Positions 1 through 11,660 of a stretch of DNA of 64,000 nucleotides are shown here, piece by piece. The translations under genes and the position numbers were made by a program. The notes under the pieces are model-generated. The model saw only the letters and a list, made by a program, of their open reading frames with translations. It was not told where the DNA came from and made no database searches. Source of the DNA: Spirochaetia bacterium (GTDB lineage Bacteria; Spirochaetota; Spirochaetia; DSM-2461); contig OY764216.1 in NCBI GenBank assembly GCA_963668315.1, forward strand, positions 5,120,001 through 5,184,000, read 5' to 3'. Each line of letters begins with the position of its first letter. Position 1 is the first letter of the stretch.

Positions 1-263
1 TCCCTCCAGCTCTTCTGGGATCCATCCCGTTCGTATTTTCTGACATCGATGGTAACAAGACCCTCTTCGTAGGCAAAGGAACGCACTTCATTCAGCCTTC
101 CATCCTTATAGAAGCGGGACTGAAGAGGACGCTGAAGACCATCGGAAAGGAGTTCCTCGGCCAGTTCCCCGTCACGGTAGAAGTTTTCCCAGTCCCCTTC
201 ATCCGTCTGGGATACCAGAGGAAAGAGTATCACGCAAAGGAAAAGAACCAGCCCCCTTCTCAT
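1..263 (-). CDS. Secreted hypothetical protein (partial, runs off the window start)
   Basis: Manual translation MRRGLVLFLCVILFPLVSQTDEGDWENFYRDGELAEE...; signal-peptide-like N-terminus; ATGA overlap with the ftsY stop; AAGGAG upstream. Confidence 0.7.
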   Translation of the reverse strand, partial: MRRGLVLFLCVILFPLVSQTDEGDWENFYRDGELAEELLSDGLQRPLQSRFYKDGRLNEVRSFAYEEGLVTIDVRKYERDGSQKSWR

Positions 264-1204
264 TCTCCTTCCAGATTGATAAGCTCGGAAAGATAGACTT
301 CCCTGTCAAAGGGGATCAGATCATCAAGGCCTTCTCCCCGTCCCAGGAAGAGAAAGGGAATCCCCAGACGGCGGCAGATGGAGACGAGGAGACCGCCCCG
401 GGCCGTGGAATCGTACTTTGTCATAACGATGGCGTCCACCCCGATGGCCTCGTGAAATACTTCGGCCTGCTGCATGCCGTTCTGCCCCGTGGTCGCATCG
501 ATGACCAGGATTTTCTTGTACACTCCGTCGCCGAGATTGTTCCGGATCACCTTATCAATCTTCTCCAGCTCAAGGACAAGATTCTTCTTATTGTGCATAC
601 GCCCCGCCGTATCGACCAGGATCAGTTTCTCCCCCTGGCTTTTGGCGGAGGCGATGGTATCATAAATCACGGCTCCCGGATCGGAACCTGGCTGCTGGGC
701 GACGACGCGGCAATCCACCCTCTCGCCCTGTATCTTGAGCTGATCGATAGCGCCGGCCCGGAAGGTATCCGCTGCGGCAAGGACAATGGGCCCGGTGCCC
801 TTTTTCTTGTAGTACCGGGCCATCTTGGCGATAGACGTCGTTTTACCCACCCCGTTGACACCGAGAATCAGAAAAAGGTTCAGCCTATCACTATCCGGCT
901 CGAATCTCTCTTCACGGACCGATTCGGCGATAAGACGACGCAGTTCCCCGATGATTTCCTCCTGGGTGGAGAGCTTGTTCTTCCGGACACTGGTACGGAG
1001 TTCATCGGAGATTTCCATGGTAACCGTTCCGCCCATGTCCGACTCGATGAGGAGATCTTCCAGATCTTCATAAAAAGCCTCTCCCGCACCGTCCTTCTTG
1101 AAAAGAGAGGCTATGCGCGACGCCAGATTCTTATTTTTCTTCGGTGAGGCCTGAACTTCCTCCCCGGCGGTTTGTTCCTGTTTTTTTTTCTTGCCGAATA
1201 TCAT
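260..1204 (-). CDS. ftsY: Signal recognition particle receptor FtsY
   Basis: GVNGVGKTT P-loop, DTFRAGA, DTAGR and TKYD..ARGG motifs; start 1204 or 1210. Confidence 0.96.
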   Translation of the reverse strand: MIFGKKKKQEQTAGEEVQASPKKNKNLASRIASLFKKDGAGEAFYEDLEDLLIESDMGGTVTMEISDELRTSVRKNKLSTQEEIIGELRRLIAESVREERFEPDSDRLNLFLILGVNGVGKTTSIAKMARYYKKKGTGPIVLAAADTFRAGAIDQLKIQGERVDCRVVAQQPGSDPGAVIYDTIASAKSQGEKLILVDTAGRMHNKKNLVLELEKIDKVIRNNLGDGVYKKILVIDATTGQNGMQQAEVFHEAIGVDAIVMTKYDSTARGGLLVSICRRLGIPFLFLGRGEGLDDLIPFDREVYLSELINLEGE

Positions 1205-1224
1205 ATACAATCCTTTGCTGTGAA

Positions 1225-2616
1225 CTATCTCTGTTCAATACTTTTTTCCGATGCTTTAATATACTTGACCAGACGGGTTATGGAAACCCCCAGAAGAGCT
1301 CCGCTCACAGCCATACTACCCCAGAAGACACCCGTGCTGTAGTAGGCTCTGTTATAGGCCTCATCATAGGTATCCATGTCTCCCGCGGCATAGGCGCTGT
1401 TGGCCCTCTGGACCTGATTTTCCCTGATGCCGTTCAGTATGAGCGGGGCGGCGACAGAGAGGGAGAACCATCCCAGAGTATTGTAGAACTTATCTTTGGC
1501 TATGAGCCGCTCTTCTTCCCAGTCCACTCCGCCGGCGGTCAGGGCGTAATGAACCTCATCCGGCGTATCCGGCCCCAGAGAAGCCGACAGGGAGTCATAC
1601 CCTTCCAGGGAGAGAATCATTTTCTCCGCCAGGAGGGGGCGGGGAAGAACCAGGGGCGTCTGCCCCCGGTAGACAGAACCGAGGAGGACATCGGCGCCGG
1701 CCGGTTCCGACAGGATGGACACAAGTTCCTCCTCCCCCGGTTCCAGGGCCACGGTTCTCACCATCCGGCTCCCGGGGACAAGGGTAATCTCTTCCCTGTA
1801 GCTTTTATGCCGGGGATACCGGACTTCCAGCAGAGCCGGACCGGGCATGAGGGTTTCCTCGTCCACGGCCCCCACGCCCAGGGAGACGCCGTTAAGAAAT
1901 ACCTGCGCCCGGGACGGATCGGCCGATACGCTCAGAGCGCTCCAGTCGCGGCCGAGAAGTGTCTTCTTGACGGCATCGGCCATCTCCCCCACCAGCCTCT
2001 CAATCTCATCGGTTTTACCGGCTCCCGACCAGAGAGGAAGAGGCTCCTCCCGGGCGGCACTGATTCCGGTCAGCTCAATGAGGATGAAATCGCCCGCATC
2101 GTCGATGGTGCCGGTGATGATAAAATCGGGTTCCTCCTCGCGAGCTTCCCCGGCGGAGGAAAACAGAATCCCCCCCTCTCCGGGAGCGAGATAGGAGATG
2201 GCCCGGGAAGAGGGCTCTTCGTTTCCGGCTGTATCGGCAGAATCATACTTTTTACGGAGGCTGTTAATTTCCTTAGTAAGGGATTCATACTTGATGGGAT
2301 CCTCGGAGAACAGAAGAGCATCCCTCTGTTCCAGAAGACTTTCCCACTGGGCCAGGAGCTTTTCCTGACTGGCGATAAAGGCGTTCCTGCTTTTATGGGC
2401 GATTTCCTCCTCACTCATAAAATGATCCGGATAGGAGGAAATCTCATGATAGAGCTGCAGGGGTATCTGGCGGTAGAGAAAATGATTTTCCCCGGCAAGA
2501 TCCCCCTCAAAAACAGTGAGGGCACATTTCCAGTCCGAGGTTTCACCCCAGAGAAGCGCTCCGAGCAGAAAGAGAAGGGAAAAAAGCCGAATCCTATTTT
2601 GCTCCACCGAACTCAA
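1225..2616 (-). CDS. PEGA-domain membrane/exported protein
   Basis: Signal peptide; two PEGA-like repeats (SADPSRAQVFLNG, SEPAGADVLLG..YRGQTP); C-terminal hydrophobic helices. Confidence 0.75.
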   Translation of the reverse strand: MSSVEQNRIRLFSLLFLLGALLWGETSDWKCALTVFEGDLAGENHFLYRQIPLQLYHEISSYPDHFMSEEEIAHKSRNAFIASQEKLLAQWESLLEQRDALLFSEDPIKYESLTKEINSLRKKYDSADTAGNEEPSSRAISYLAPGEGGILFSSAGEAREEEPDFIITGTIDDAGDFILIELTGISAAREEPLPLWSGAGKTDEIERLVGEMADAVKKTLLGRDWSALSVSADPSRAQVFLNGVSLGVGAVDEETLMPGPALLEVRYPRHKSYREEITLVPGSRMVRTVALEPGEEELVSILSEPAGADVLLGSVYRGQTPLVLPRPLLAEKMILSLEGYDSLSASLGPDTPDEVHYALTAGGVDWEEERLIAKDKFYNTLGWFSLSVAAPLILNGIRENQVQRANSAYAAGDMDTYDEAYNRAYYSTGVFWGSMAVSGALLGVSITRLVKYIKASEKSIEQR

Positions 2617-2975
2617 CCTCGGGCTAAAGCCTTCTTCACAGCCGAAAGGAGCCGGGTTTTCTGGAAGGGTTTAACCACGAAGTCACTGGCTCCCAGCTGA
2701 ATGGCTTTGATGATTCTCTCCTGGTCTCCCAGGGAGGAGCACATGACGACCAGGGAGTCGGGATGGCGCTTTTTCAGCTCCTTCAGACAGCTCAGACCGT
2801 CCATACGGGGCATGGCGATATCCAGCAGAACAAGATCGGGTCTTTTTTCCTCGTACTTAACCAGGCAGTCCTGTCCGTCCGAGGCCTCTCCGGCGATGCT
2901 GTAACCGCCGGCTACGAGAATATCTCTGATGATGGATCTCATAAATGAGAGGTCGTCGACCACTAAAATATTCAT
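2613..2975 (-). CDS. cheY: CheY-like single-domain response regulator
   Basis: MNILVVDD...LLDIAMPRMDG...VVKPF; ATGA overlap with the prfB stop fixes the start at 2975. Confidence 0.88.
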   Translation of the reverse strand: MNILVVDDLSFMRSIIRDILVAGGYSIAGEASDGQDCLVKYEEKRPDLVLLDIAMPRMDGLSCLKELKKRHPDSLVVMCSSLGDQERIIKAIQLGASDFVVKPFQKTRLLSAVKKALARG

Positions 2976-4076
2976 TCCCTGTTCTGAGAGCTGTATCTCA
3001 AATACTCCTCTATGAATTGATCGATATCCCCGTCCATAACGGCCTGAATATTGCCCGTTTCCGCACGGGTGCGCAGGTCCTTGACCATGGTATAGGGATG
3101 AAAAACGTAAGAGCGGATCTGTGACCCCCATCCTATGTCCTTTTTTTCGGCGGCGTTCTTGGCCTGTTCTTCCTGCTGTTTCTGCCGGTAGTACTCGTAC
3201 AGACGCGACCGGAGGATTTTAAAGGCGGTGTCCTTGTTTTTGGTCTGACTTCTCTCGTTCTGACACTGTACAACCAGTCCCGATTCGAGGTGGGTCAGCC
3301 GGACGGCACTGTCCGTTTTATTAACATGCTGACCGCCCGCTCCGGAAGAACGGTACGTATCGATCCTGACATCTTCCGGCTTGATATCCACTTCGATGGA
3401 ATCGTCGATAACGGGGGAAACGTAAACCGAAGCGAAGGAAGTATGCCGCCGGGCATTGGAGTCGAAGGGCGAAATCCGTACGAGACGGTGAATTCCCCCC
3501 TCTCCCTTCAAAAGACCGTGCGCATAGTCGCCATTGATCTGTACAGAGACGGACTTGATGCCTCCCTCGGCTTCCAGAATATCCAGAAGGGTCATCTTGA
3601 ATCCCTTTCTTTCCACCCAGCGGCTGTACATACGGTAAAGCATGGACGCCCAGTCGCAGGCCTCGGTGCCCCCCGCGCCGGAGTGAATCGTCACGAAGGC
3701 ATTCAGACCATCGGTCTCCTCGGAGAGGAGCTCCAGGGTATTCAGGTTCTCAAAGGTCTGTTCCAGAGAATCCATAGAACCGGAGATCTCTCCTTCCAGA
3801 GACTCATCTCCTTCCTCTTTAGCCAGATCGAGAAGTTCGATACAGTCACCCAGATCGGAGACAAGTTTCTCCCAGGGCTCATAGCGTCCCTTGATTCTCT
3901 TCAGTTCGGAAAGGATTTTCTCGGCCTGATCTCTGTCATTCCAGAAATCCGGATCGGCGGAGATATTCTCAAGTTCGGCGGCTTTGTTTTTCAGCTTATC
4001 CGAGTCAAAGACGCCTCCATGCGTCGAGGATGTCCTTTTCTATCTTCTTAATACGGGGGTTCAAGTCATTGAGCAC
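2972..4076 (-). CDS. prfB: Peptide chain release factor 2, with programmed +1 frameshift
   Basis: SPF and GGQ motifs; GTG start at 4076 after TAAGGAG; 23 codons then GGAGG-CGT-CTT-TGA-C at 4018-4004, continuing in +1 frame (DSDKLKNKAAELE...DFWND). Confidence 0.97.
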
Positions 4077-4353
4077 TGTTTTTCTCCTTAAGTATCATGC
4101 GCCGCCACCGATTCTCCGACAGGGAAGAAATGACCAGCCTGTCGTCAATGGGATACTGATAAAACCTGATGGCGTCATAAAAATCGGTAGCCCGGTCAAG
4201 ATCGAGCTTCAACCGGGCCAGCTGTTTCTCATTCATATTGTACGATTCAAAACAATTACCCTGCACCTGTTTAAAGCCATAACGCAGCAGTAAATTGGAC
4301 GTTACACGGCTGGAATCCTCTCCGCCGGCGTCAATTATCACGGAAACAAACAT
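4066..4353 (-). CDS. cas2: Orphan Cas2/VapD-like protein
   Basis: 95 aa; MFVSVIID (Asp8), RYGFKQVQGNCFE and DAIRFY parallel the Cas2 pattern (YD...YG.RVQ.SVFE...DS.R.Y); no cas1 or array in the window. Confidence 0.65.
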   Translation of the reverse strand: MFVSVIIDAGGEDSSRVTSNLLLRYGFKQVQGNCFESYNMNEKQLARLKLDLDRATDFYDAIRFYQYPIDDRLVISSLSENRWRRMILKEKNSAQ

Positions 4354-4359
4354 GGAACA

Positions 4360-4388
4360 ACTCTAGGGTGGAATCCCCTTCCTGTCAA
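4360..4388 (-). promoter_or_regulatory. sigma70 promoter TTGACA-N17-TAGAGT, predicted leaderless start at the cas2-like ATG
   Basis: Consensus -35; 17-bp spacer; ATG 6 nt after the -10; no SD. Confidence 0.65.
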
Positions 4389-4395
4389 GAGGCTT

Positions 4396-4737
4396 CTACT
4401 CCATAACCGAACAGACGTCGGCGTCTTCGGAAAACTCTTTAAAAGATTCACGTACAAAAAGATAGAGATCATCTACCCGAGAGAGGTCCCCTTCCTTGAT
4501 TGTCGTCTCCAGCTCAAAGGAGGCGGCGAACAGCTTCTCGGCACTCACCGCTCCGGCGGAGCCCTTGATCTTATGTGCCAGTTCGGCGGCAGCCTCAGGC
4601 TCCTCCTTAAGGGTTTCTTCCAGCCTGTCCAGCATGAGGGGAACGTCTTCCAGGGTAAAGCCGACAAGTTCCTTTAAAAGGGACATATCGTTCATCGTAT
4701 GCTTCATCGCCTTTTCTTTGTTAAAAACCTCTTCCAT
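4396..4737 (-). CDS. Hpt (histidine phosphotransfer) domain protein
   Basis: AHKIKGSAGAVSA motif; AAGGAG RBS. Confidence 0.9.
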   Translation of the reverse strand: MEEVFNKEKAMKHTMNDMSLLKELVGFTLEDVPLMLDRLEETLKEEPEAAAELAHKIKGSAGAVSAEKLFAASFELETTIKEGDLSRVDDLYLFVRESFKEFSEDADVCSVME

Positions 4738-4747
4738 ACTGATCTCC

Positions 4748-6544
4748 TTAATCCTTGCTTTTCTTCAGGGCATCCTGAAACTCGGTCCAGGCATTATTCT
4801 GCTCCCGGTTGGTATAATGGGGCTCCTTGCTCTTGGGCGGGCGGCTTCGGCGGTTCACAGTCCGGCTTTGACTTCTCGAAGCGGGCGACGGGCGGTAGCT
4901 TTCCATGGGATCGTCCGACGCTTTCAGAGTCTTGCCCGTATAAACATCACCGCCCGTTCTTTTCACGGCGGAACCCTCCCCTCCCCGGGGGGCCGAGTCG
5001 GGAAGACGGCTGAAAGATTCCAGATAACTGTCATACCGGCCGAACAGACGGAGGATAACTTTCCTGAACAGGGGGAGACGGCCGTAGGACTGGAGAAAGA
5101 GGGGCTGAAGGTAAAGATCCAGCATTTTATCCAGCCTGATGAAGCGGATGGTGGAATTTTCCTCGAAGTATTTATTCAAAAGGAGGCGCACCTGCTCTGC
5201 CGTGGGGGTACTTGACCGCCTCTTAACCCAGTGAAGCATAGCCTCTGACATGATTTTAGGCTTATCAAGCATAAGATGAAGCACGGGATACATCTCTTTA
5301 ATCTGATCTCTTATGCTCTGGACAAAGGATTCCGTCGTGGCAAAGACATGGCCTCCTCCTCCCCTCCGGGAAACCAGGACGTCTTCCATGAGAGAGAGGT
5401 AATATTTTTTGAGCTCAACCGAAGCCTCTTTCAGATACATCCGGAAGGAGAGATAGATATGATCGCGGTGCATATAGCCGACCCCGAGATTCACGATAAT
5501 CGGCAGGGACGTCTTGTTTTTCATCATGACGCACTGATCGTAAAAGGTGTTCTTGAAGTCGGGCCATTTTTTTATGCCGTTCTCCAGGTATTCATTCAGC
5601 TCCTGCTGGGTCAGGTATTTTTTCGGCCTCATCTCTATGGACTGACAGACTGCCACCAGCTCGTCCTTCTGGGACTGCTTGTCCAGACGGATTCTCTCCG
5701 CCTCGTCAAGACCGTTCCGGGTGTACGAATAAATAAGGGAAACGGCGGGATAGTAGTCGTCGGGAATATGGCGTCTTTTGTCGGAGACCAGATCCCGGTT
5801 TTCCATAAGGCAGCGGCTGAGTTTATTCCAGAAATTGTGATCCCGGTTCTTCATGTCCCTCTGGATTTCACTCTCCATAAACCCCATGGTCTTGGAAAGG
5901 AAAGTGAGAAGCTGGGGACTTTTCACCACGGTCTTTATCTTATCCCGAGCCAGCCGGATGACATGGGGAATAGTGGCCGGAGTGGCATAGATCGGATCGT
6001 ATCCGTCGCACTTGATAAGAAGAATCCTGACCGCATCCTGGCTTTCAAGGGCCATGGTCTCACTTATGTCGGTCAGCCCCAGGGTTTCCACATATTTCCC
6101 GGGCAGGACCATATCCTGCCTTTCCAGAAATTTGGGAGTAACGAAGAGCCGGTCCTCCGAATGGAGGGAATAGACATACTCATTCTCTATATAATAATAG
6201 AAAAAGCGGATGGAGTCCCTTTCGCATAAAACGATCTGCTTATTAACGATATTTCCCTGGGAAGACGCCACTCCCAGAATTCCGCAGCGGGCATTGAAAA
6301 GCTTCTGCATGAGCTGACTCAGATGGCTCTGGATAAAGGAAAACTGATTCTTCCCCAGTTCTATGAAGCGGTTATAGTCTATCTCCGGTTCCCAGATTTC
6401 GCAGAGCTTATGAAAAATAGCTCTCTGCTCCTGATTAAAATTGCCCAGCTGGGATAGAAATTCCTCTTTCTGAATCTGATCGAATTTAAAAAATTCAGGC
6501 ATGGGGGGCTGCGATCGAAGCTGATATTCCTGAACCTCTGCCAT
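4748..6544 (-). CDS. Hypothetical protein (~598 aa, basic C-terminal tail)
   Basis: Long ORF; ATG 6544 preceded by GGAGCAGGA; no recognised motif. Confidence 0.75.
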   Translation of the reverse strand: MAEVQEYQLRSQPPMPEFFKFDQIQKEEFLSQLGNFNQEQRAIFHKLCEIWEPEIDYNRFIELGKNQFSFIQSHLSQLMQKLFNARCGILGVASSQGNIVNKQIVLCERDSIRFFYYYIENEYVYSLHSEDRLFVTPKFLERQDMVLPGKYVETLGLTDISETMALESQDAVRILLIKCDGYDPIYATPATIPHVIRLARDKIKTVVKSPQLLTFLSKTMGFMESEIQRDMKNRDHNFWNKLSRCLMENRDLVSDKRRHIPDDYYPAVSLIYSYTRNGLDEAERIRLDKQSQKDELVAVCQSIEMRPKKYLTQQELNEYLENGIKKWPDFKNTFYDQCVMMKNKTSLPIIVNLGVGYMHRDHIYLSFRMYLKEASVELKKYYLSLMEDVLVSRRGGGGHVFATTESFVQSIRDQIKEMYPVLHLMLDKPKIMSEAMLHWVKRRSSTPTAEQVRLLLNKYFEENSTIRFIRLDKMLDLYLQPLFLQSYGRLPLFRKVILRLFGRYDSYLESFSRLPDSAPRGGEGSAVKRTGGDVYTGKTLKASDDPMESYRPSPASRSQSRTVNRRSRPPKSKEPHYTNREQNNAWTEFQDALKKSKD

Positions 6545-6546
6545 AA

Positions 6547-6702
6547 TCAGTCCTGCTCCTTCTTCTCTTGGCGGTTCTCTCCGGGGGAGTTCTGCTTTTC
6601 CTGTTTCTTCTTCTGCCAGTAGGGGATGATGCCGAACAGGACTGCCCTTAGAAGAAGCATGATTCCCACAAAAAGCATGAGTGATATGATGGCGCTGCCC
6701 AT
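6547..6702 (-). CDS. Small single-pass membrane protein (51 aa), absent from the ORF track
   Basis: AGGAG RBS; MGSAIISLMLFVGIMLLLRAVLFGIIPYWQKKKQEKQNSPGENRQEKKEQD; own promoter TTGATC-N17-TATACT at 6779-6751. Confidence 0.65.
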   Translation of the reverse strand: MGSAIISLMLFVGIMLLLRAVLFGIIPYWQKKKQEKQNSPGENRQEKKEQD

Positions 6703-6820
6703 TTAAGACTCCTGTCAAGAATCGGTATGAATAAACACACCTCTGCTTACAGTATATTTCTAATTAGTCCTGTGATCAATATATTTTCTCCAATCCCCGG
6801 GAGATGGAAGAAAAAAGGAC

Positions 6821-6917
6821 AAAAAAAAAAGAGCCTCTGCCCATCGGCCCGCCGTTGCTCCTTATTTCACATTCTGGAATAAACGTATGGCGCAGACCGA
6901 TGCTGTTGCTCTTTTCA
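6821..6917 (-). ncRNA. Candidate ~97-nt rod-shaped non-coding RNA, family unknown
   Basis: TTGTAT-N17-TACATT promoter at 6952-6924; nested stems AAAAGAGC/GCUCUUUU and CAUCGGUCUGC/GCGGGCCGAUG; U10 tail. Confidence 0.5.
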
Positions 6918-7009
6918 CTAAGTAATGTAGTCCAACTATTAAGATAATACAAGTTTTTTTTATTTTTTTCCCGCCGATTTAATCGTAAATTAACAGGCAC
7001 GTCCGGATT

Positions 7010-7723
7010 TTACCGATTCTTTACAGAATATGTGATGTCAGAAACAGCCCCGTCCTCCCGAATCATGATTTCCCGGATCCGCGAAAGGACCGGATCATAA
7101 AACCTGTGCCGTCCCGCAGGCAGCCGCGGAGGAATCCCCATTCCCAGAAACGTGTCATCTGAAATCCACTCATCCTCCCCTTCTGCCACCAGGGCAAAAA
7201 GAGGAGAAACCCTGATACGGTAGAGAGCCATCTCGCCCTGCCCAATGTACCGGACCAATCCGTCCAGGTCCAAAAACCAGGGGGATTCTGTCTCTTCCCG
7301 GGTGAACTCCCGGAAAAAACGGGAGACATTAAACAGTCTCAGATCGCCCCCTTCCAGATAGACCCTCCGCAGAACAGCCCCCGCCGGCCCGGACTCAAAG
7401 GACAGATAACCGCTGTCCCCGGATAATCCGTCCAGATAGAGAGCGGCCGGCTTGAGGGAGAATCCGGCCGGTCCCCGGGGCGTTGCCAAGACAATTAGCT
7501 CCTCTTCCCGTCCGGATTTCAGAGTGAATTCACGGCGGTCCTCCTGAACGGAGAAATCGGTGAGACCGTTCTGGAAAGAAAGAACTTCCACATCCCAGCT
7601 TTCGATAAAATCATACTCCCCGGAAAGAGCGGGAAGAACAACCGTATACTCCCTTTCGGCCGGGAAAAAAGTGCACCCCATAAAGAGCACGGACAGAATC
7701 CCCGGAATAAATCCTTTATGCAT
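7010..7723 (-). CDS. Hypothetical lipoprotein
   Basis: Lipobox-like LFMGC after a hydrophobic stretch. Confidence 0.65.
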   Translation of the reverse strand: MHKGFIPGILSVLFMGCTFFPAEREYTVVLPALSGEYDFIESWDVEVLSFQNGLTDFSVQEDRREFTLKSGREEELIVLATPRGPAGFSLKPAALYLDGLSGDSGYLSFESGPAGAVLRRVYLEGGDLRLFNVSRFFREFTREETESPWFLDLDGLVRYIGQGEMALYRIRVSPLFALVAEGEDEWISDDTFLGMGIPPRLPAGRHRFYDPVLSRIREIMIREDGAVSDITYSVKNR

Positions 7724-7750
7724 ACCCCCTGGGGGGGGGCAAATTATTCC

Positions 7751-8284
7751 CTATAACCCGTTTTTCAGGTTTTCCTTGTAAATATTGCGAATTTCCTTAA
7801 GAATATCCCTGTTCTCCCGGCTGCGGAAATCGGGATAGGTCCATTCCAGAGGTTCGAAGTCCTTCTTTCTGAAAAGGAGGGTGGTCTCCCCGTAGATACC
7901 GTCGGACAGAGGAATCCGGTGGGCATTGTCCTTGGTTGTGGCCAGGACAAAACGGCTCAGGGCCATGACGCCCGGATCCAGGTTCACCATACGGCGCCCC
8001 TCATCCAGGGCGTATTTTTTCTCCATCCGGTTGGTCTCTCTCTTTATCGCGGACAGGGCGGAAGGATCGACCAGCCTCTCGAAGGAGTAGAACCAGCGGA
8101 ATATGGGCGTTCCCATTTCCCCGTCGTAATAGTTCGTATAATCAAAGGCGAGAGGGCCTGCTTTATAATCAAAAGGGCCCCATTTTTCCTTCAGTTCCGA
8201 TTCGAGAGACTCCCGCAGATCTTCCCGGGAGATTAATAAGCCTATGACGAGCTTCTCTTCTGTAAAAAGTGATTCTTTCCCCAC
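7751..8284 (-). CDS. DUF4416 family protein
   Basis: F.YT.YY..EMG, R.VNLDPG, LATTKDNAHRI and WTYPDF motifs; GTG start after GGAGAGG. Confidence 0.85.
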   Translation of the reverse strand: MGKESLFTEEKLVIGLLISREDLRESLESELKEKWGPFDYKAGPLAFDYTNYYDGEMGTPIFRWFYSFERLVDPSALSAIKRETNRMEKKYALDEGRRMVNLDPGVMALSRFVLATTKDNAHRIPLSDGIYGETTLLFRKKDFEPLEWTYPDFRSRENRDILKEIRNIYKENLKNGL

Positions 8285-8352
8285 AATTCCTCTCCATAAA
8301 GACGGCAAAACTATTGCATAAACCGGTCCATTCGTTCGATACTAATACTATT

Positions 8353-9768
8353 ATGGAAGAAAATAGGGATTTTGTACAAGAACTGGAAGAGGGATTAAAG
8401 GCAAAGAGAGTGGAACTGGAAAGCTCCATTTTACCGAGCCTGAAAGAAGATCTCCGTAGCTTTGGAAACACCTTCCATATGATGTATACCTACCTCGTCC
8501 AGAAGGGTTTTCTGAAAGAGGATCATTACAACTACGAGCAAACCTCGTCCCTGGAGCCCCCTTCCTCCGATCCTATAGCCGATGCAGAAATGGTTTCGGA
8601 ACTGAGCTACCGTCTCTCAAGTTACGACAGCACAATGGATTATCTGAACAACGTCTATGATGTGGATATAGATAAACTGAATCTGGGCGGCATAAAAAAA
8701 GTCCTTTCCGTCGTGGATTATATCAAATGGAACAGCCTCGGCAGCAACACGACCCATTCCATAACACGGGCACTTTCTCTGATAATGGACAAGATTATCA
8801 CCAATTCCAATGACCCGGTCAGTTCCGAAGTACGCTTCAACGCCATCTCCACGCAGATAACCAATTACAAGAACATCAAGGAAAAGCTGAAGGAGATAAG
8901 CCTCTACCAGAGGGAAGCCTATAAATTCCGGATCCGGTCGGTGATCCTGCCCAGCGTCAATCCGACCTCGGAGATGGTGGCAAAGGATCTGAAGGGCCTT
9001 TTGATGTCCATAAAGCTTGAAATCGGCTCACAGCTTCCCGGCTCTCCCTTCTACCGGGAGCTTATTGAAGAGATACTGGATGAGGACTTCGGCTTCGACG
9101 GGGAAAGGAAAAGAGCCGACCTTCTGAAAAGACTGAATGTACAGGGCAAGAAGGACAGCCAGAAGAAAAAGAAGAAAGAGCCCGAAAGGAAAGTGGACAA
9201 GCAGACCCTTCTCAAGATTATTCCCGATCTGTCCAAATCGGCCGATCAGCTGGGATCGGCTCTGGCCAAACTGGAAAACAACAGGGAAATCACCTCATCA
9301 AAAAAGAAAGGTCTGGCGGAAATTCTGCGCCGTTTCTTCAATAGAAGGGAAGAGGATGTCTACTACGATGTGAAGACCACCGACCCTGTCAGCGGACAGT
9401 CCCGCAAGGTAAGAATCAACTTCACCACCCTTTCCGATAAAATCCGCAAGAAAACCCAGCTGCTCAGAAATATCGGAAATATCAACTCCCAGCAGTACGA
9501 AAAGCTGGCCCAGTATTCCGAAGAGATGCTCAAGGAATTCATCGATAACAATCTTATGGAAATACGCTCGTTCCACCGGCAGATGGTCGGGCTGGACGAA
9601 ATGTTCAAAAAAGAGGATGAACCCACTGTCAAGGCACGCATCAGGGGTATCCGCGTCGAGACGGACACTCTCAAAAGGCTCTATATGGAGTGCAACAAGA
9701 GCCTTAAGGAGTACATGTCCATCAAGGAAGAGATGGCCCAGCTGAAAGCACTGGGCATCAACAATTAA
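8353..9768 (+). CDS. Hypothetical helical/coiled-coil protein
   Basis: Long ORF with genome-typical codon usage; ATG 8353. Confidence 0.75.
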   Translation: MEENRDFVQELEEGLKAKRVELESSILPSLKEDLRSFGNTFHMMYTYLVQKGFLKEDHYNYEQTSSLEPPSSDPIADAEMVSELSYRLSSYDSTMDYLNNVYDVDIDKLNLGGIKKVLSVVDYIKWNSLGSNTTHSITRALSLIMDKIITNSNDPVSSEVRFNAISTQITNYKNIKEKLKEISLYQREAYKFRIRSVILPSVNPTSEMVAKDLKGLLMSIKLEIGSQLPGSPFYRELIEEILDEDFGFDGERKRADLLKRLNVQGKKDSQKKKKKEPERKVDKQTLLKIIPDLSKSADQLGSALAKLENNREITSSKKKGLAEILRRFFNRREEDVYYDVKTTDPVSGQSRKVRINFTTLSDKIRKKTQLLRNIGNINSQQYEKLAQYSEEMLKEFIDNNLMEIRSFHRQMVGLDEMFKKEDEPTVKARIRGIRVETDTLKRLYMECNKSLKEYMSIKEEMAQLKALGINN

Positions 9769-11660
9769 ACCCGGTAGAGCCCTAGAATCCGGAATCCCTT
9801 TACCGCGTCCCTTACATCTTCGGCTGCCTTGATAAAAGCCTCCTTGTCCTGGGGAACGTCAAAATCCACATAGAAGGAGTAACTCCAGGGTTTGCCGTGT
9901 ATCGGCCGGGATTCGATCCGCGTCATGTTCAGATGATGGCGGGCGAACAGAGCCAGACATTTGGAGAGGGACCCGGTTTCATCGGAGACCTCGAACATGA
10001 CGGTAGCCTTGTTCGGTTTGGTAACCTTAACGTTCTCGGCCCTTCCGATCACGGCGAACCGTGTATAGTTGTTCGGATTGGTTTCAATCCCGTCCCTGAT
10101 AATTTCCATATCCCAGACCCGCGCCGCTTCGTCGCTGGCTATGGCAGCCCTGTGGAGAGCGTCCTTTTCTGCGGCCAGATCGGCCACGGCTCCGGAGGTA
10201 TCGTAGGCGGGAATCGGCGCCAGCTTATGCTCCCTGATAAAACGCTCGCACTGGGCCAGGGCCTGCGGATGGGAACGGACTTCTGTGATATCCTCCAGCT
10301 TCACGCCCTTATGGGCAATGAGATTGTGTCTTATGCGGATTTTAATCTCGCCCACAATGCTGATATCGGGATTCAGATTCAAAAGATCATAGTTTTCCAG
10401 AATAGAACCGGCCAGAGAGTTCTCCACGGGGATCATACCCCAGTCGGCTTTGCCCTTGAGAACCGAGTCGAAGACCTCTTCGAAGGAGCCGCAGGGAAGG
10501 GATTCCGCTTTATCCTCGGGAAAATAGTGCTTCAAAGCCTTCTCGCTGTAGGCACCGGGGGCTCCCTGAAAAGCGACCCGGCAGCTGTCTCCCGAGAAAC
10601 TGACCTTTTCATCCACCGCGGCGGAAAGATTATGATTTTCGGGCAGACGGGCCACTTCCTTCCCCACCACGGGGGCGAGGGCTTCCACATCGTGTACAAG
10701 CTTGGCGAACTGTTCGGGATAGAGAGACTGGGCCCCGTCGGAAACGGCCTGGTCCGGATCGGGATGCACCTCGACTATCAGACCGTTCGCTCCGGCGGCG
10801 ACGCCTGCCAGGGCCATGGGAAGAACTTTATTCCTGATACCCGTTCCGTGGGAAGGATCCACGATGACCGGCAGATGGCTGAGTTTGCGGACAATGGGGA
10901 TGGCGGAGATATCCAGGGTATTCCTGGTATAGGTCTCGAAGGTGCGTATGCCCCTTTCACAGAGAATGACCTTGTCCGTACCGGAGGAGAGCAGATATTC
11001 CGCCGCCATGAGCCACTCGTTTATCGTGGCGGACAGTCCCCGCTTGAGTATGACGGGCATACCCATGGAGCCGACGGTCTTCAGAAGCTCGAAATTCTGC
11101 ATATTCCGTGCGCCTATCTGATAAACGTCGATATAATCGGCCATGCCTTCCACATCCCCGGTAGCCACGACTTCGGTGACGACGGGCATGCCTGTTGCTT
11201 CGCCCGCTTCCTTGAGGAGCTTCAATCCTTCAAAGCCCAGTCCCTGGAAGGAGTAAGGCGATGTACGCGGTTTGAAGGCACCGCCCCTGAGCATGACGCC
11301 TCCCGCGTCCTTGACCGCCCGGGCCGCGGTCATGATCTGTTCCCGCGATTCCACGGCGCAGGGACCGCCGATAATGACGATGCGCGATCCCCCCACGGTA
11401 ACAGGCCCTACGGAAAAGACCGTATCCTCCCTGTGAAGTTCCCGGGAAGCCAGCTTATATGGCTTGGAAATGGGAATAACACGGGCAACACCCGGCAGAA
11501 GTTCAATGTGTCTCTGATCGATAGAGACCTGTCCCACAGCACCCAGAATAGTCTCCTTCTCGCCCACGATTTCGCGGACCTGAAGACCTCTTCCACTGAG
11601 GAAATCCTTTATATAGGTTTTTTCCTTTTCCGATACACCTGTTTCCAATACGATAATCAT
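9765..11660 (-). CDS. aroF: Bifunctional DAHP synthase (class I-beta) / prephenate dehydratase
   Basis: [27 protein letters not shown]-terminal [25 protein letters not shown] and ESRP ACT domain. Confidence 0.93.

Follow-up and report, generated by a model that had tools for sequence, protein, structure and literature searches.

A CRISPR-independent Cas2-fold protein family of spirochaetes encoded, in one class, directly in front of prfB

The analysed window, a 64-kb stretch (64,000 nucleotides) of spirochaete DNA, contains a short gene with a match to Cas2 that is located directly upstream of prfB and is called here the orphan gene. Its conservation has been studied in 75 related loci of the same class (the best 30 of a search with a 27-sequence profile plus 45 from a second search, encoding 73 distinct proteins), 30 of them with flanks of only 1.5 kb. 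The features of the locus, all on the minus strand, are the following:

260..1210, minus strand: ftsY-like gene for an SRP receptor GTPase (PF00448 and PF02881)
1225..2616, minus strand: PEGA-domain exported protein (PF08308)
2613..2972, minus strand: stand-alone receiver domain, cheY-like (PF00072)
2972..4076, minus strand: prfB, peptide chain release factor 2, in two frames (TIGR00020, 443.6 bits, cut-off 370)
4004..4019, minus strand: +1 frameshift site of prfB, CTT TGA C (4010-4004), with an internal SD-like GGAGG (from the sequence)
4074..4089, minus strand: Shine-Dalgarno AAGGAG (4089-4084) and GTG start (4076-4074) of prfB, within the 3' end of the orphan gene (from the sequence)
4066..4353, minus strand: orphan Cas2-fold gene, 95 aa (ORF list and PF09827 match)
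4360..4365, minus strand: -10 box TAGAGT, 6 nt 5' of the orphan ATG (predicted leaderless start at 4353)
4383..4388, minus strand: -35 box TTGACA of the predicted operon promoter (from the sequence; kept in 68 of 75 loci)
4396..4737, minus strand: Hpt-domain gene, upstream of the orphan gene (neighbour in 10 of 75 loci)

The order prfB-cheY-PEGA-ftsY behind the orphan gene, described in an earlier sequence-only reading of this DNA, was as stated according to the domain matches, and the Cas2-like residue spacing of the 95-residue ORF was also confirmed, with a hydrophobic strand followed by Asp8 and the motifs YGFKQVQGNCFE and DAIRFY. The frameshift site of prfB is located 22 codons after the GTG start, and its CTT TGA C heptamer is the same in nearly all related loci. 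The programmed frameshift mechanism of RF2 is well established; ORF callers give just a 267-aa part of prfB in the window, and in several genomes that do not carry the orphan gene (L078, L079, L082, L087, L097) CTT TGA is followed by A or G, not C. The upstream Hpt gene adjoins the orphan in only 10 of the 75 loci and does not belong to the conserved unit. Beyond it on the minus strand, positions 4748-6718 encode a protein of about 600-650 aa without Pfam or NCBIfam match that is conserved upstream in 12 of the 75 loci, and positions 9765-11660 a 631-aa protein resembling, by eye, a DAHP synthase fused to a prephenate dehydratase. Rfam gave no matches across positions 1-9000 of the window.

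The two promoter boxes are separated by a 17-nt spacer. A single site of the TTGACA/TAGAGT type is near chance in the window (2 found vs 1.2 expected); among the related loci, TTGAC occurs 34-38 nt 5' of the orphan start in 68 of 75, versus 49 of 5253 background positions (0.9%), the -10 consensus after the 17-nt spacer is TAnnnT with the ATG usually 6 nt further on, and an SD-like word precedes the start in just 2 of the 75. The promoter of its own that had been claimed for the gene is thus conserved, as a sigma-70 promoter of leaderless type, and a leaderless start is predicted from the sequence. Genome-wide, 67 strict sites of the form TTGAC-spacer-TAnnnT-5 to 8 nt-ATG were found before ORFs of at least 60 aa, 64 of them without SD-like word, preceding genes that resemble, by eye, secA, clpB, murA and many regulators; leaderless initiation may be widespread in this organism. 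As also described before, the 3' end of the orphan ORF overlaps the ribosome-binding site and start of prfB, by 11 nt in its last codons, an overlap that is lineage-specific (12 of 75 loci, with a short gap in most others and two loci not scored). A terminator-like site inside the ORF (4208-4189) was within chance (3 found vs 2.3 expected), and a hidden constraint at the RNA level was discarded, synonymous variation being 0.36-0.51 per block, like that of prfB. Judged by its substitutions, selection on the orphan gene targets the protein and not the RNA.

The relationship with Cas2 has been analyzed by profile and structural searches. The window protein scored 28.6 bits with the Pfam Cas2 model PF09827 (cut-off 23.8), which matches 51 of 80 family members at E<=0.1, and missed the equivalog cut-off of TIGR01573 (15.4 bits vs 24.5), with Cas2 as the best PADLOC models. 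Searched against solved structures, family profiles brought up Cas2 proteins with E values between 1e-4 and 5e-3 and did not retrieve VapD. An AlphaFold (AF2) model built from 80 sequences (pLDDT 93.6, predicted order b1-a1-b2-b3-a2-b4-b5-b6) had Cas2 proteins as its top Foldseek matches at 25-30% identity, the best being 4qr0 (TM 0.62/0.70, 28% identity), with VapD at rank 27. A wide structural search (VIA) placed Cas2 at all ranks from 1 to 13 (Z 7.9-10.7), above PaaX (Z 7.5), VapD (Z 6.5) and BPSL1038 (Z 5.7). Neighbours in the ESM Atlas form three clusters, with Spirochaetota as the commonest phylum and Cas2 as the automatic name; a viral fold search gave uncharacterised proteins only (best E 7e-4). 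A predicted ferredoxin fold of Cas2 type and homology to Cas2 are supported by these results; of the Cas2/VapD-like fold proposed from the sequence, the Cas2 part stood and the likeness to VapD proved weaker. Members are labelled 'CRISPR-associated protein Cas2' or 'hypothetical' in public databases.

Neither cas1 nor a CRISPR array was found within the 64-kb window, as had been noted. The sole cas1 match of the genome is located about 270 kb away, at C1:4.853-4.859 Mb, together with a canonical cas2 and a 61-repeat CRISPR-like array, in the gene order cas4-cas1-cas2 of a locus that looks like type I-C. With its only cas1 match and its one long array at that distance, the gene under study is an orphan by position in a CRISPR-bearing genome, of which it is the second Cas2 homologue, unrelated to the cas2 of the cas locus. 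That locus also contains a 132-aa ORF, Bro-N-type-like by eye, between a cas7-like gene and cas4 (L001:443-841), and the spirochaete CRISPR loci L127, L130, L131 and L133 each have two different cas2 genes in tandem that fall on two separate tree branches. Searches with Cas1 and Cas4 of this genome found neither gene beside the orphan in the 75 genome loci, in 80 metagenome loci (the best of 258 matches) or in 12 loci of a second class, in flanks of 1.5-5 kb, some shorter, whose genes were identified as others. Matches to cas1 are present in 39 of 55 carriers and in 10 of 20 non-carriers, all four combinations occurring (kin are not independent); three of the 16 carriers without cas1 match are single-contig genomes, one of them searched minus 16 kb. 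In five tested cas1-free carriers (three of them single-contig), which keep the orphan promoter and gene start intact, no cas3 above the cut-off, cas9 or RAMP genes were found. No relatives were matched in plasmids, phages or viral contigs. The CRISPR independence that had been suggested is borne out by loci and genomes alike, and homologues are not restricted to the vicinity of cas1.

A search of 401 genomes of the phylum with the 27-sequence profile matched 57, of which 56 were kept; G076 was dropped because of a weak match (E 3e-4) with internal stops. The 12 weaker matches belong to another class (that of G017) and form a sister subfamily in the tree. Within the window's class, an 80-sequence profile matched 129 of 301 genomes, always in single copy, and carriage goes by families, some entirely positive (7/7, 9/9, 6/6) and others entirely negative (0/32, 0/31). 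Tails of at least 15 aa were found in 21 of 236 members, most of them basic and often Ala/Pro-rich; those of 24-66 aa rich in Ala, Pro, Lys and Arg (P0030, P0036, P0161, P0162, L186, L189, L239) resemble histone-H1-like tails. A long-form search, a weak one, yielded no fusion partners and two proteins with unstructured extensions only; P0059, P0064, P0078 and P0084, in which a family fragment is joined to unrelated sequence, looked like assembly chimeras and were set aside.

In a tree of 98 columns, 73 members were separated from 32 CRISPR Cas2 proteins of the same spirochaete class as a clade with a stem of length 2.14 (support 100/100; 100/99 with the second class added). The tree is unrooted and does not give the direction of descent; the family may derive from a CRISPR Cas2 or be sister to it. 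The median dN/dS was 0.038 over 62 usable close pairs, versus 0.029 for RF2 over 67 (saturated pairs dropped, pairs not independent). Across 68 loci, orphan and RF2 distances are correlated (rho 0.68, permutation p 0.001), a pattern that vertical descent would produce, and the nearest neighbour agrees between both in 48 of these loci. By these sequence comparisons the family is vertically inherited, single-copy and under strong purifying selection.

Residue counts were made on 226 distinct full-length members. Conserved in the orphan protein are Asp8, Glu36, Lys49, Asp60, Arg63, Gln66, Pro68, Trp83 and the basic hairpin 81-85. Position 8 is acidic in 224 members (Asp in 210, Glu in 14), and other kept residues are G26 (223), Q31 (198), an aromatic residue at 35 (225), E36 (225), K49 (225), D57 (223), D60 (226) and R63 (224); 20 of 32 canonical Cas2 proteins have Lys49 too. 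Tyr7 (0/226) and Ser33 (12/226) have been lost, position 29 is K, Q or R and not an invariant Arg, and Arg at 14 is found in 22 of 226 members vs 29 of 32 canonical Cas2 proteins. The RRLRK patch of helix 1 is lost (median net charge 0 vs +4, median basic residues of the helix 2 vs 5 in canonical Cas2), and the canonical YD and SVF motifs and C-terminal tail are absent. Gained residues are F2 (224), Q66 (225), P68 (223) and W83 (226), with K/R at positions 82, 84 and 85 in 222, 221 and 225 members, and residues 79-89 contain a median of 5 basic residues vs 1 in canonical Cas2. The family ends before the last strand of E. coli Cas2, which is the Cas1-binding one.

The VIA alignment pairs residues 1-92 of the model with residues 2-85 of E. 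coli Cas2, and from the end of this range the basic-Trp hairpin falls roughly, in an approximate register, at Arg77/Arg78, which contact DNA in E. coli Cas2 (PMC8390960, available text). According to the available text of PMC9510766, the DNase activity of Leptospira Cas2C (LinCas2C) requires Tyr7, Asp8, Arg33 and Phe39, SSO1404 depends for its activity on Tyr9, Asp10, Arg17, Arg19, Arg31 and Phe37, and Asp8, Asp64 and Arg67 line the dimer interface of Leptospira Cas2C; in a Cas1-Cas2 model of type II-A, the protospacer is bound by basic residues of helix 1 (PMC11021501, available text). From the pattern of kept and lost residues it follows that the dimer set is preserved, that the surface used in adaptation has disappeared and that half of the nuclease set remains. 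Asp8 may be retained for the dimer interface, and its replacement by Glu in 14 members would be compatible with catalysis and with a structural function alike. The invariant residues could for the most part belong to the core or the dimer, and the basic-Trp hairpin could equally bind protein or membrane.

The explanation preferred here, held tentatively and given somewhat less than an even chance, is that the orphan protein, a CRISPR-independent spirochaete offshoot of Cas2, forms homodimers that bind nucleic acid in a housekeeping role and probably serve as a modest nuclease on cellular RNA, the choice of RNA rather than DNA as substrate being a guess from the context. As in Cas2, the contact between two subunits would run through b4/b5, so that both Asp8 residues come to lie close to each other and to Asp60 and Arg63. 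The K/R-K/R-W-K/R-R/K hairpin would replace the positive charge lost from helix 1 and grip nucleic acid through stacking and charge, and the Asp8 pair would weakly cut the bound molecule. In the window's class, the protein would be translated from a leaderless 5' end, under a promoter common with prfB.

The same residues may be read as those of a catalytically dead scaffold or regulator, a dimeric platform binding nucleic acid, protein or a ligand, for which PaaX offers a parallel. The loss of Tyr7, the helix-1 arginines and Ser33 points to such a role, as do the rank of PaaX as next structural match after Cas2 (Z 7.5), the mapping of the new invariant residues to a2 and to the hairpins of b4-b6 and not near the catalytic strand, the tolerance of Glu at position 8, a residue of the dimer interface in a homologue (PMC9510766, available text), and the structural part that Cas2 plays in adaptation as described in the available text of PMC8616872. 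Nevertheless, an acid at position 8 and an aromatic residue at 35 have been kept almost throughout the family, divergent and even truncated Cas2-fold proteins keep nuclease activity in vitro according to the available texts of PMC9510766 and PMC10491678, and the loci and searches examined showed neither a conserved partner gene nor a fusion; a dead scaffold is considered rather unlikely.

The position of the gene bears on a second alternative. In the window's class, prfB is directly downstream of the orphan in all 75 genome loci and in 75 of the best 80 of 258 metagenome matches, the other five lying at a contig edge; eight additional class loci showed prfB in seven and an early end in one. 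Among the 75 loci, ftsY was seen in 40 and cheY in 37. In 44 of 73 loci the gene upstream is conserved and divergent and codes for an exported protein; elsewhere it is Hpt (10) or another gene. Where it is divergent, the orphan promoter must head the operon. The divergent protein has 300-530 aa, with a gene of about 670 aa beyond it (e.g. L063, L065), and the two genes seem to mark the ancestral neighbourhood of the orphan. These data support a long-standing fixation of the gene as the first of the prfB operon within the class.

The sister subfamily was found in 14 of 20 genomes of the second class (0/5 in genus g34), with proteins of the same length as in the window's class and no indels. Neither prfB nor ftsY nor cas1 was found near the gene in its 12 loci (L137-L148), so that the prfB position is a trait of one class; starts are mostly led by SD-like words, and the neighbours vary (sugar enzymes, TPR, GGDEF and OmpA proteins), none occurring in more than four loci. 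Within the window's class the orphan was not found in 172 of the 301 genomes searched, and it is therefore dispensable. No profile-visible remnant was detected upstream of prfB in the 24 non-carriers with sequence there (25 examined), and non-carriers retain prfB and, mostly, its frameshift site. In the loss genomes L084 and L086 a TTGACA promoter is located about 50-70 nt directly before prfB, an arrangement that suggests a clean deletion of the orphan behind a retained promoter. Four genomes of genus g152 (L158-L161) have lost three genes together, namely the orphan, the Hpt gene and the cheY-like one, so that the long upstream gene (about 600-650 aa, at 4748-6718 in the window) adjoins prfB, and two other members with loci read retain all three; a co-loss with motility or chemotaxis was discarded, as it concerns one genus only and cheY is also absent beside many carriers.

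The constant neighbourhood within the class, the promoter shared with prfB, with the divergent upstream gene in 44 of 73 loci, and a selection as strong as that on RF2 would be explained if the protein were linked to translation and, through binding to the ribosome, to RF2 or to the prfB mRNA, tuned termination, frameshifting or rescue. This is judged improbable, however, in view of a sister subfamily with SD-led starts and without prfB in 12 of 12 loci, of non-carriers that keep prfB and mostly its frameshift site, of the same promoter simply preceding prfB in L084 and L086, of the lack of extra synonymous conservation within the orphan ORF, and of the abundance of leaderless-type sites (67) in the genome. 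Comparably small chances are given to a Cas2 that left immunity early in the history of spirochaetes and was exapted into a ribosome or mRNA factor, with its leaderless start, in Spirochaetia, on the transcript of the frameshift-controlled RF2 and with the hairpin and the Asp8 pair cutting or shielding stalled or aberrant mRNA; if true, core translation control would have recruited a Cas protein, and the family, the tree being unrooted, would possibly be a living example of a housekeeping Cas2 from before CRISPR. With the preferred reading of a CRISPR-independent housekeeping nuclease, the position before prfB would reflect housekeeping co-expression and not an obligatory partnership with RF2. 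Co-expression with translation termination and SRP genes, as originally claimed, thus stands for the window's class through the shared promoter and fails for the sister subfamily, which lacks prfB and ftsY, and as a family-wide trait the prfB link does not hold there (0/12) nor in the 24 of 24 non-carriers in which the gene is missing before prfB. The earlier interpretation is partly supported: its link to translation is weaker than proposed, and its core of a CRISPR-independent Cas2 fold holds. The suggested role as an RNase or quality-control factor, a possibility only, is weakened by the loss of several positions (Tyr7, Arg at 14) on which nuclease activity depends in other Cas2 proteins.

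The protein might also influence CRISPR adaptation in trans, whether as a reserve Cas2, as a dominant-negative brake or as a decoy for anti-CRISPR proteins that target Cas2, but this is very unlikely. Such an action would agree with the presence of cas1 in 39 of the 55 carriers, the window's genome included, with the near invariance of the helix-2 Lys49 and with a known anti-CRISPR that binds and acetylates helix 2 of Cas2 (PMC11021501, available text), but 16 carriers have no cas1 match and half of the 20 non-carriers have the gene, the protospacer-binding charges of helix 1 and the canonical C-terminal tail are gone, and Lys49 is common in canonical Cas2 too. A VapD-like toxin or dormancy nuclease, with which the fold (Z 6.5), the aspartate and the dispensability of the gene would agree, is the most improbable reading, against which stand the lack of a conserved small antitoxin gene adjoining the orphan in either class among the ORFs of at least 85 aa examined, its vertical, single-copy inheritance, its consensus promoter, from which a housekeeping operon starts, the lack of plasmid or phage matches and a model without the split helices of VapD.

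Spacer acquisition does not require the intrinsic nuclease activity of Cas2, and what this activity serves for is an old question. The family represents a Cas2 lineage that is under purifying selection of RF2 level, without Cas1, in two spirochaete classes, and the natural losses in close relatives are controls that allow a clean test of the Cas2 fold alone; for one member (P0106) the source gives the name Treponema denticola, an oral species that can be handled genetically. The label 'CRISPR-associated protein Cas2' would wrongly imply CRISPR components in genomes without cas1 match. In the full-text literature, supplements aside and with subscription journals largely uncovered, no published description of the family or of its link to prfB was found; the family seems undescribed, CRISPR-free Cas2-fold proteins as such being already known (VapD, BPSL1038).

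When compared with the Cas2 proteins of CRISPR systems (PF09827, TIGR01573; S. pyogenes 4qr0, B. halodurans 4es1, Thermus 1zpw, E. coli 4qdl), the orphan family has in common the ferredoxin fold, Asp8, YG, Gln31, Glu36 and Asp60/Arg63, with 25-30% identity to 4qr0, 4es1 and 1zpw and a b4-b5-b6 arrangement as in E. coli Cas2. Unlike them, it is vertical and single-copy, forms a separate clade with a long stem, and was beside cas1 or cas4 in none of 167 loci (75 + 80 + 12); the basic helix 1, YD, SVF and the canonical C-terminal tail are missing, and an invariant QxP and the basic-Trp hairpin are new. The orphan thus fails the features of an adaptation Cas2 in context, equivalog score, helix-1 charges and the set of YD, RVQ and SVF motifs. 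PaaX (PF20803; 8a39; Z 7.5) also has a Cas2-like domain outside CRISPR, with a weak Pfam match in 2 of 80 orphan members. This middle domain of PaaX serves as a small dimeric platform; orphan proteins, unlike PaaX, are stand-alone (about 90 aa, members about 89-135 aa), with no fused DNA-binding domain.

The VapD toxins (H. influenzae 6zi0/6zi1, C. jejuni 9kan) likewise combine a Cas2-like fold and an aspartate with independence from CRISPR, and the homology of Cas2 and VapD is described in the available text of PMC3150331. Structural matches to VapD are weaker (Z 6.4-6.5, 9-15% identity), both helices of VapD are split in two (PMC9510766, available text) whereas they are predicted as continuous in the orphan model (H12-24, H42-55), and the orphan, unlike VapD, is not mobile, with no conserved antitoxin gene beside it in either class among the ORFs of at least 85 aa examined. 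The Cas2/VapD nuclease sub-family of BPSL1038 (7vxr) also shows a Cas2-like fold and an equivalent Asp, in BPSL1038's case in a genome without CRISPR, and BPSL1038 is presented in the available text of PMC10491678, where no mention of spirochaetes or Treponema is found, as a CRISPR-free Cas2-fold nuclease. In contrast, the structural match is weak (Z 5.7) and the BPSL1038 motif D(X20)SST occurs in register in 0 of 226 orphan members.

Earlier solo Cas2 homologues belong to mobile elements, beside resolvases or relaxases (PMC3506569, available text). The type II-B Cas2 of Legionella pneumophila and the Leptospira Cas2C without array resemble the orphan family in that a role beyond spacer acquisition has been proposed for them, the non-immune roles of such locus-bound proteins being treated in the available texts of PMC8616872 and PMC9510766; these are canonical genes of CRISPR-cas subtypes, whereas the orphan family has departed from the cas locus and become divergent in sequence. 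Its vertical inheritance, its chromosomal location and a constraint equal to that on a release factor are unusual among CRISPR-free Cas2 folds.
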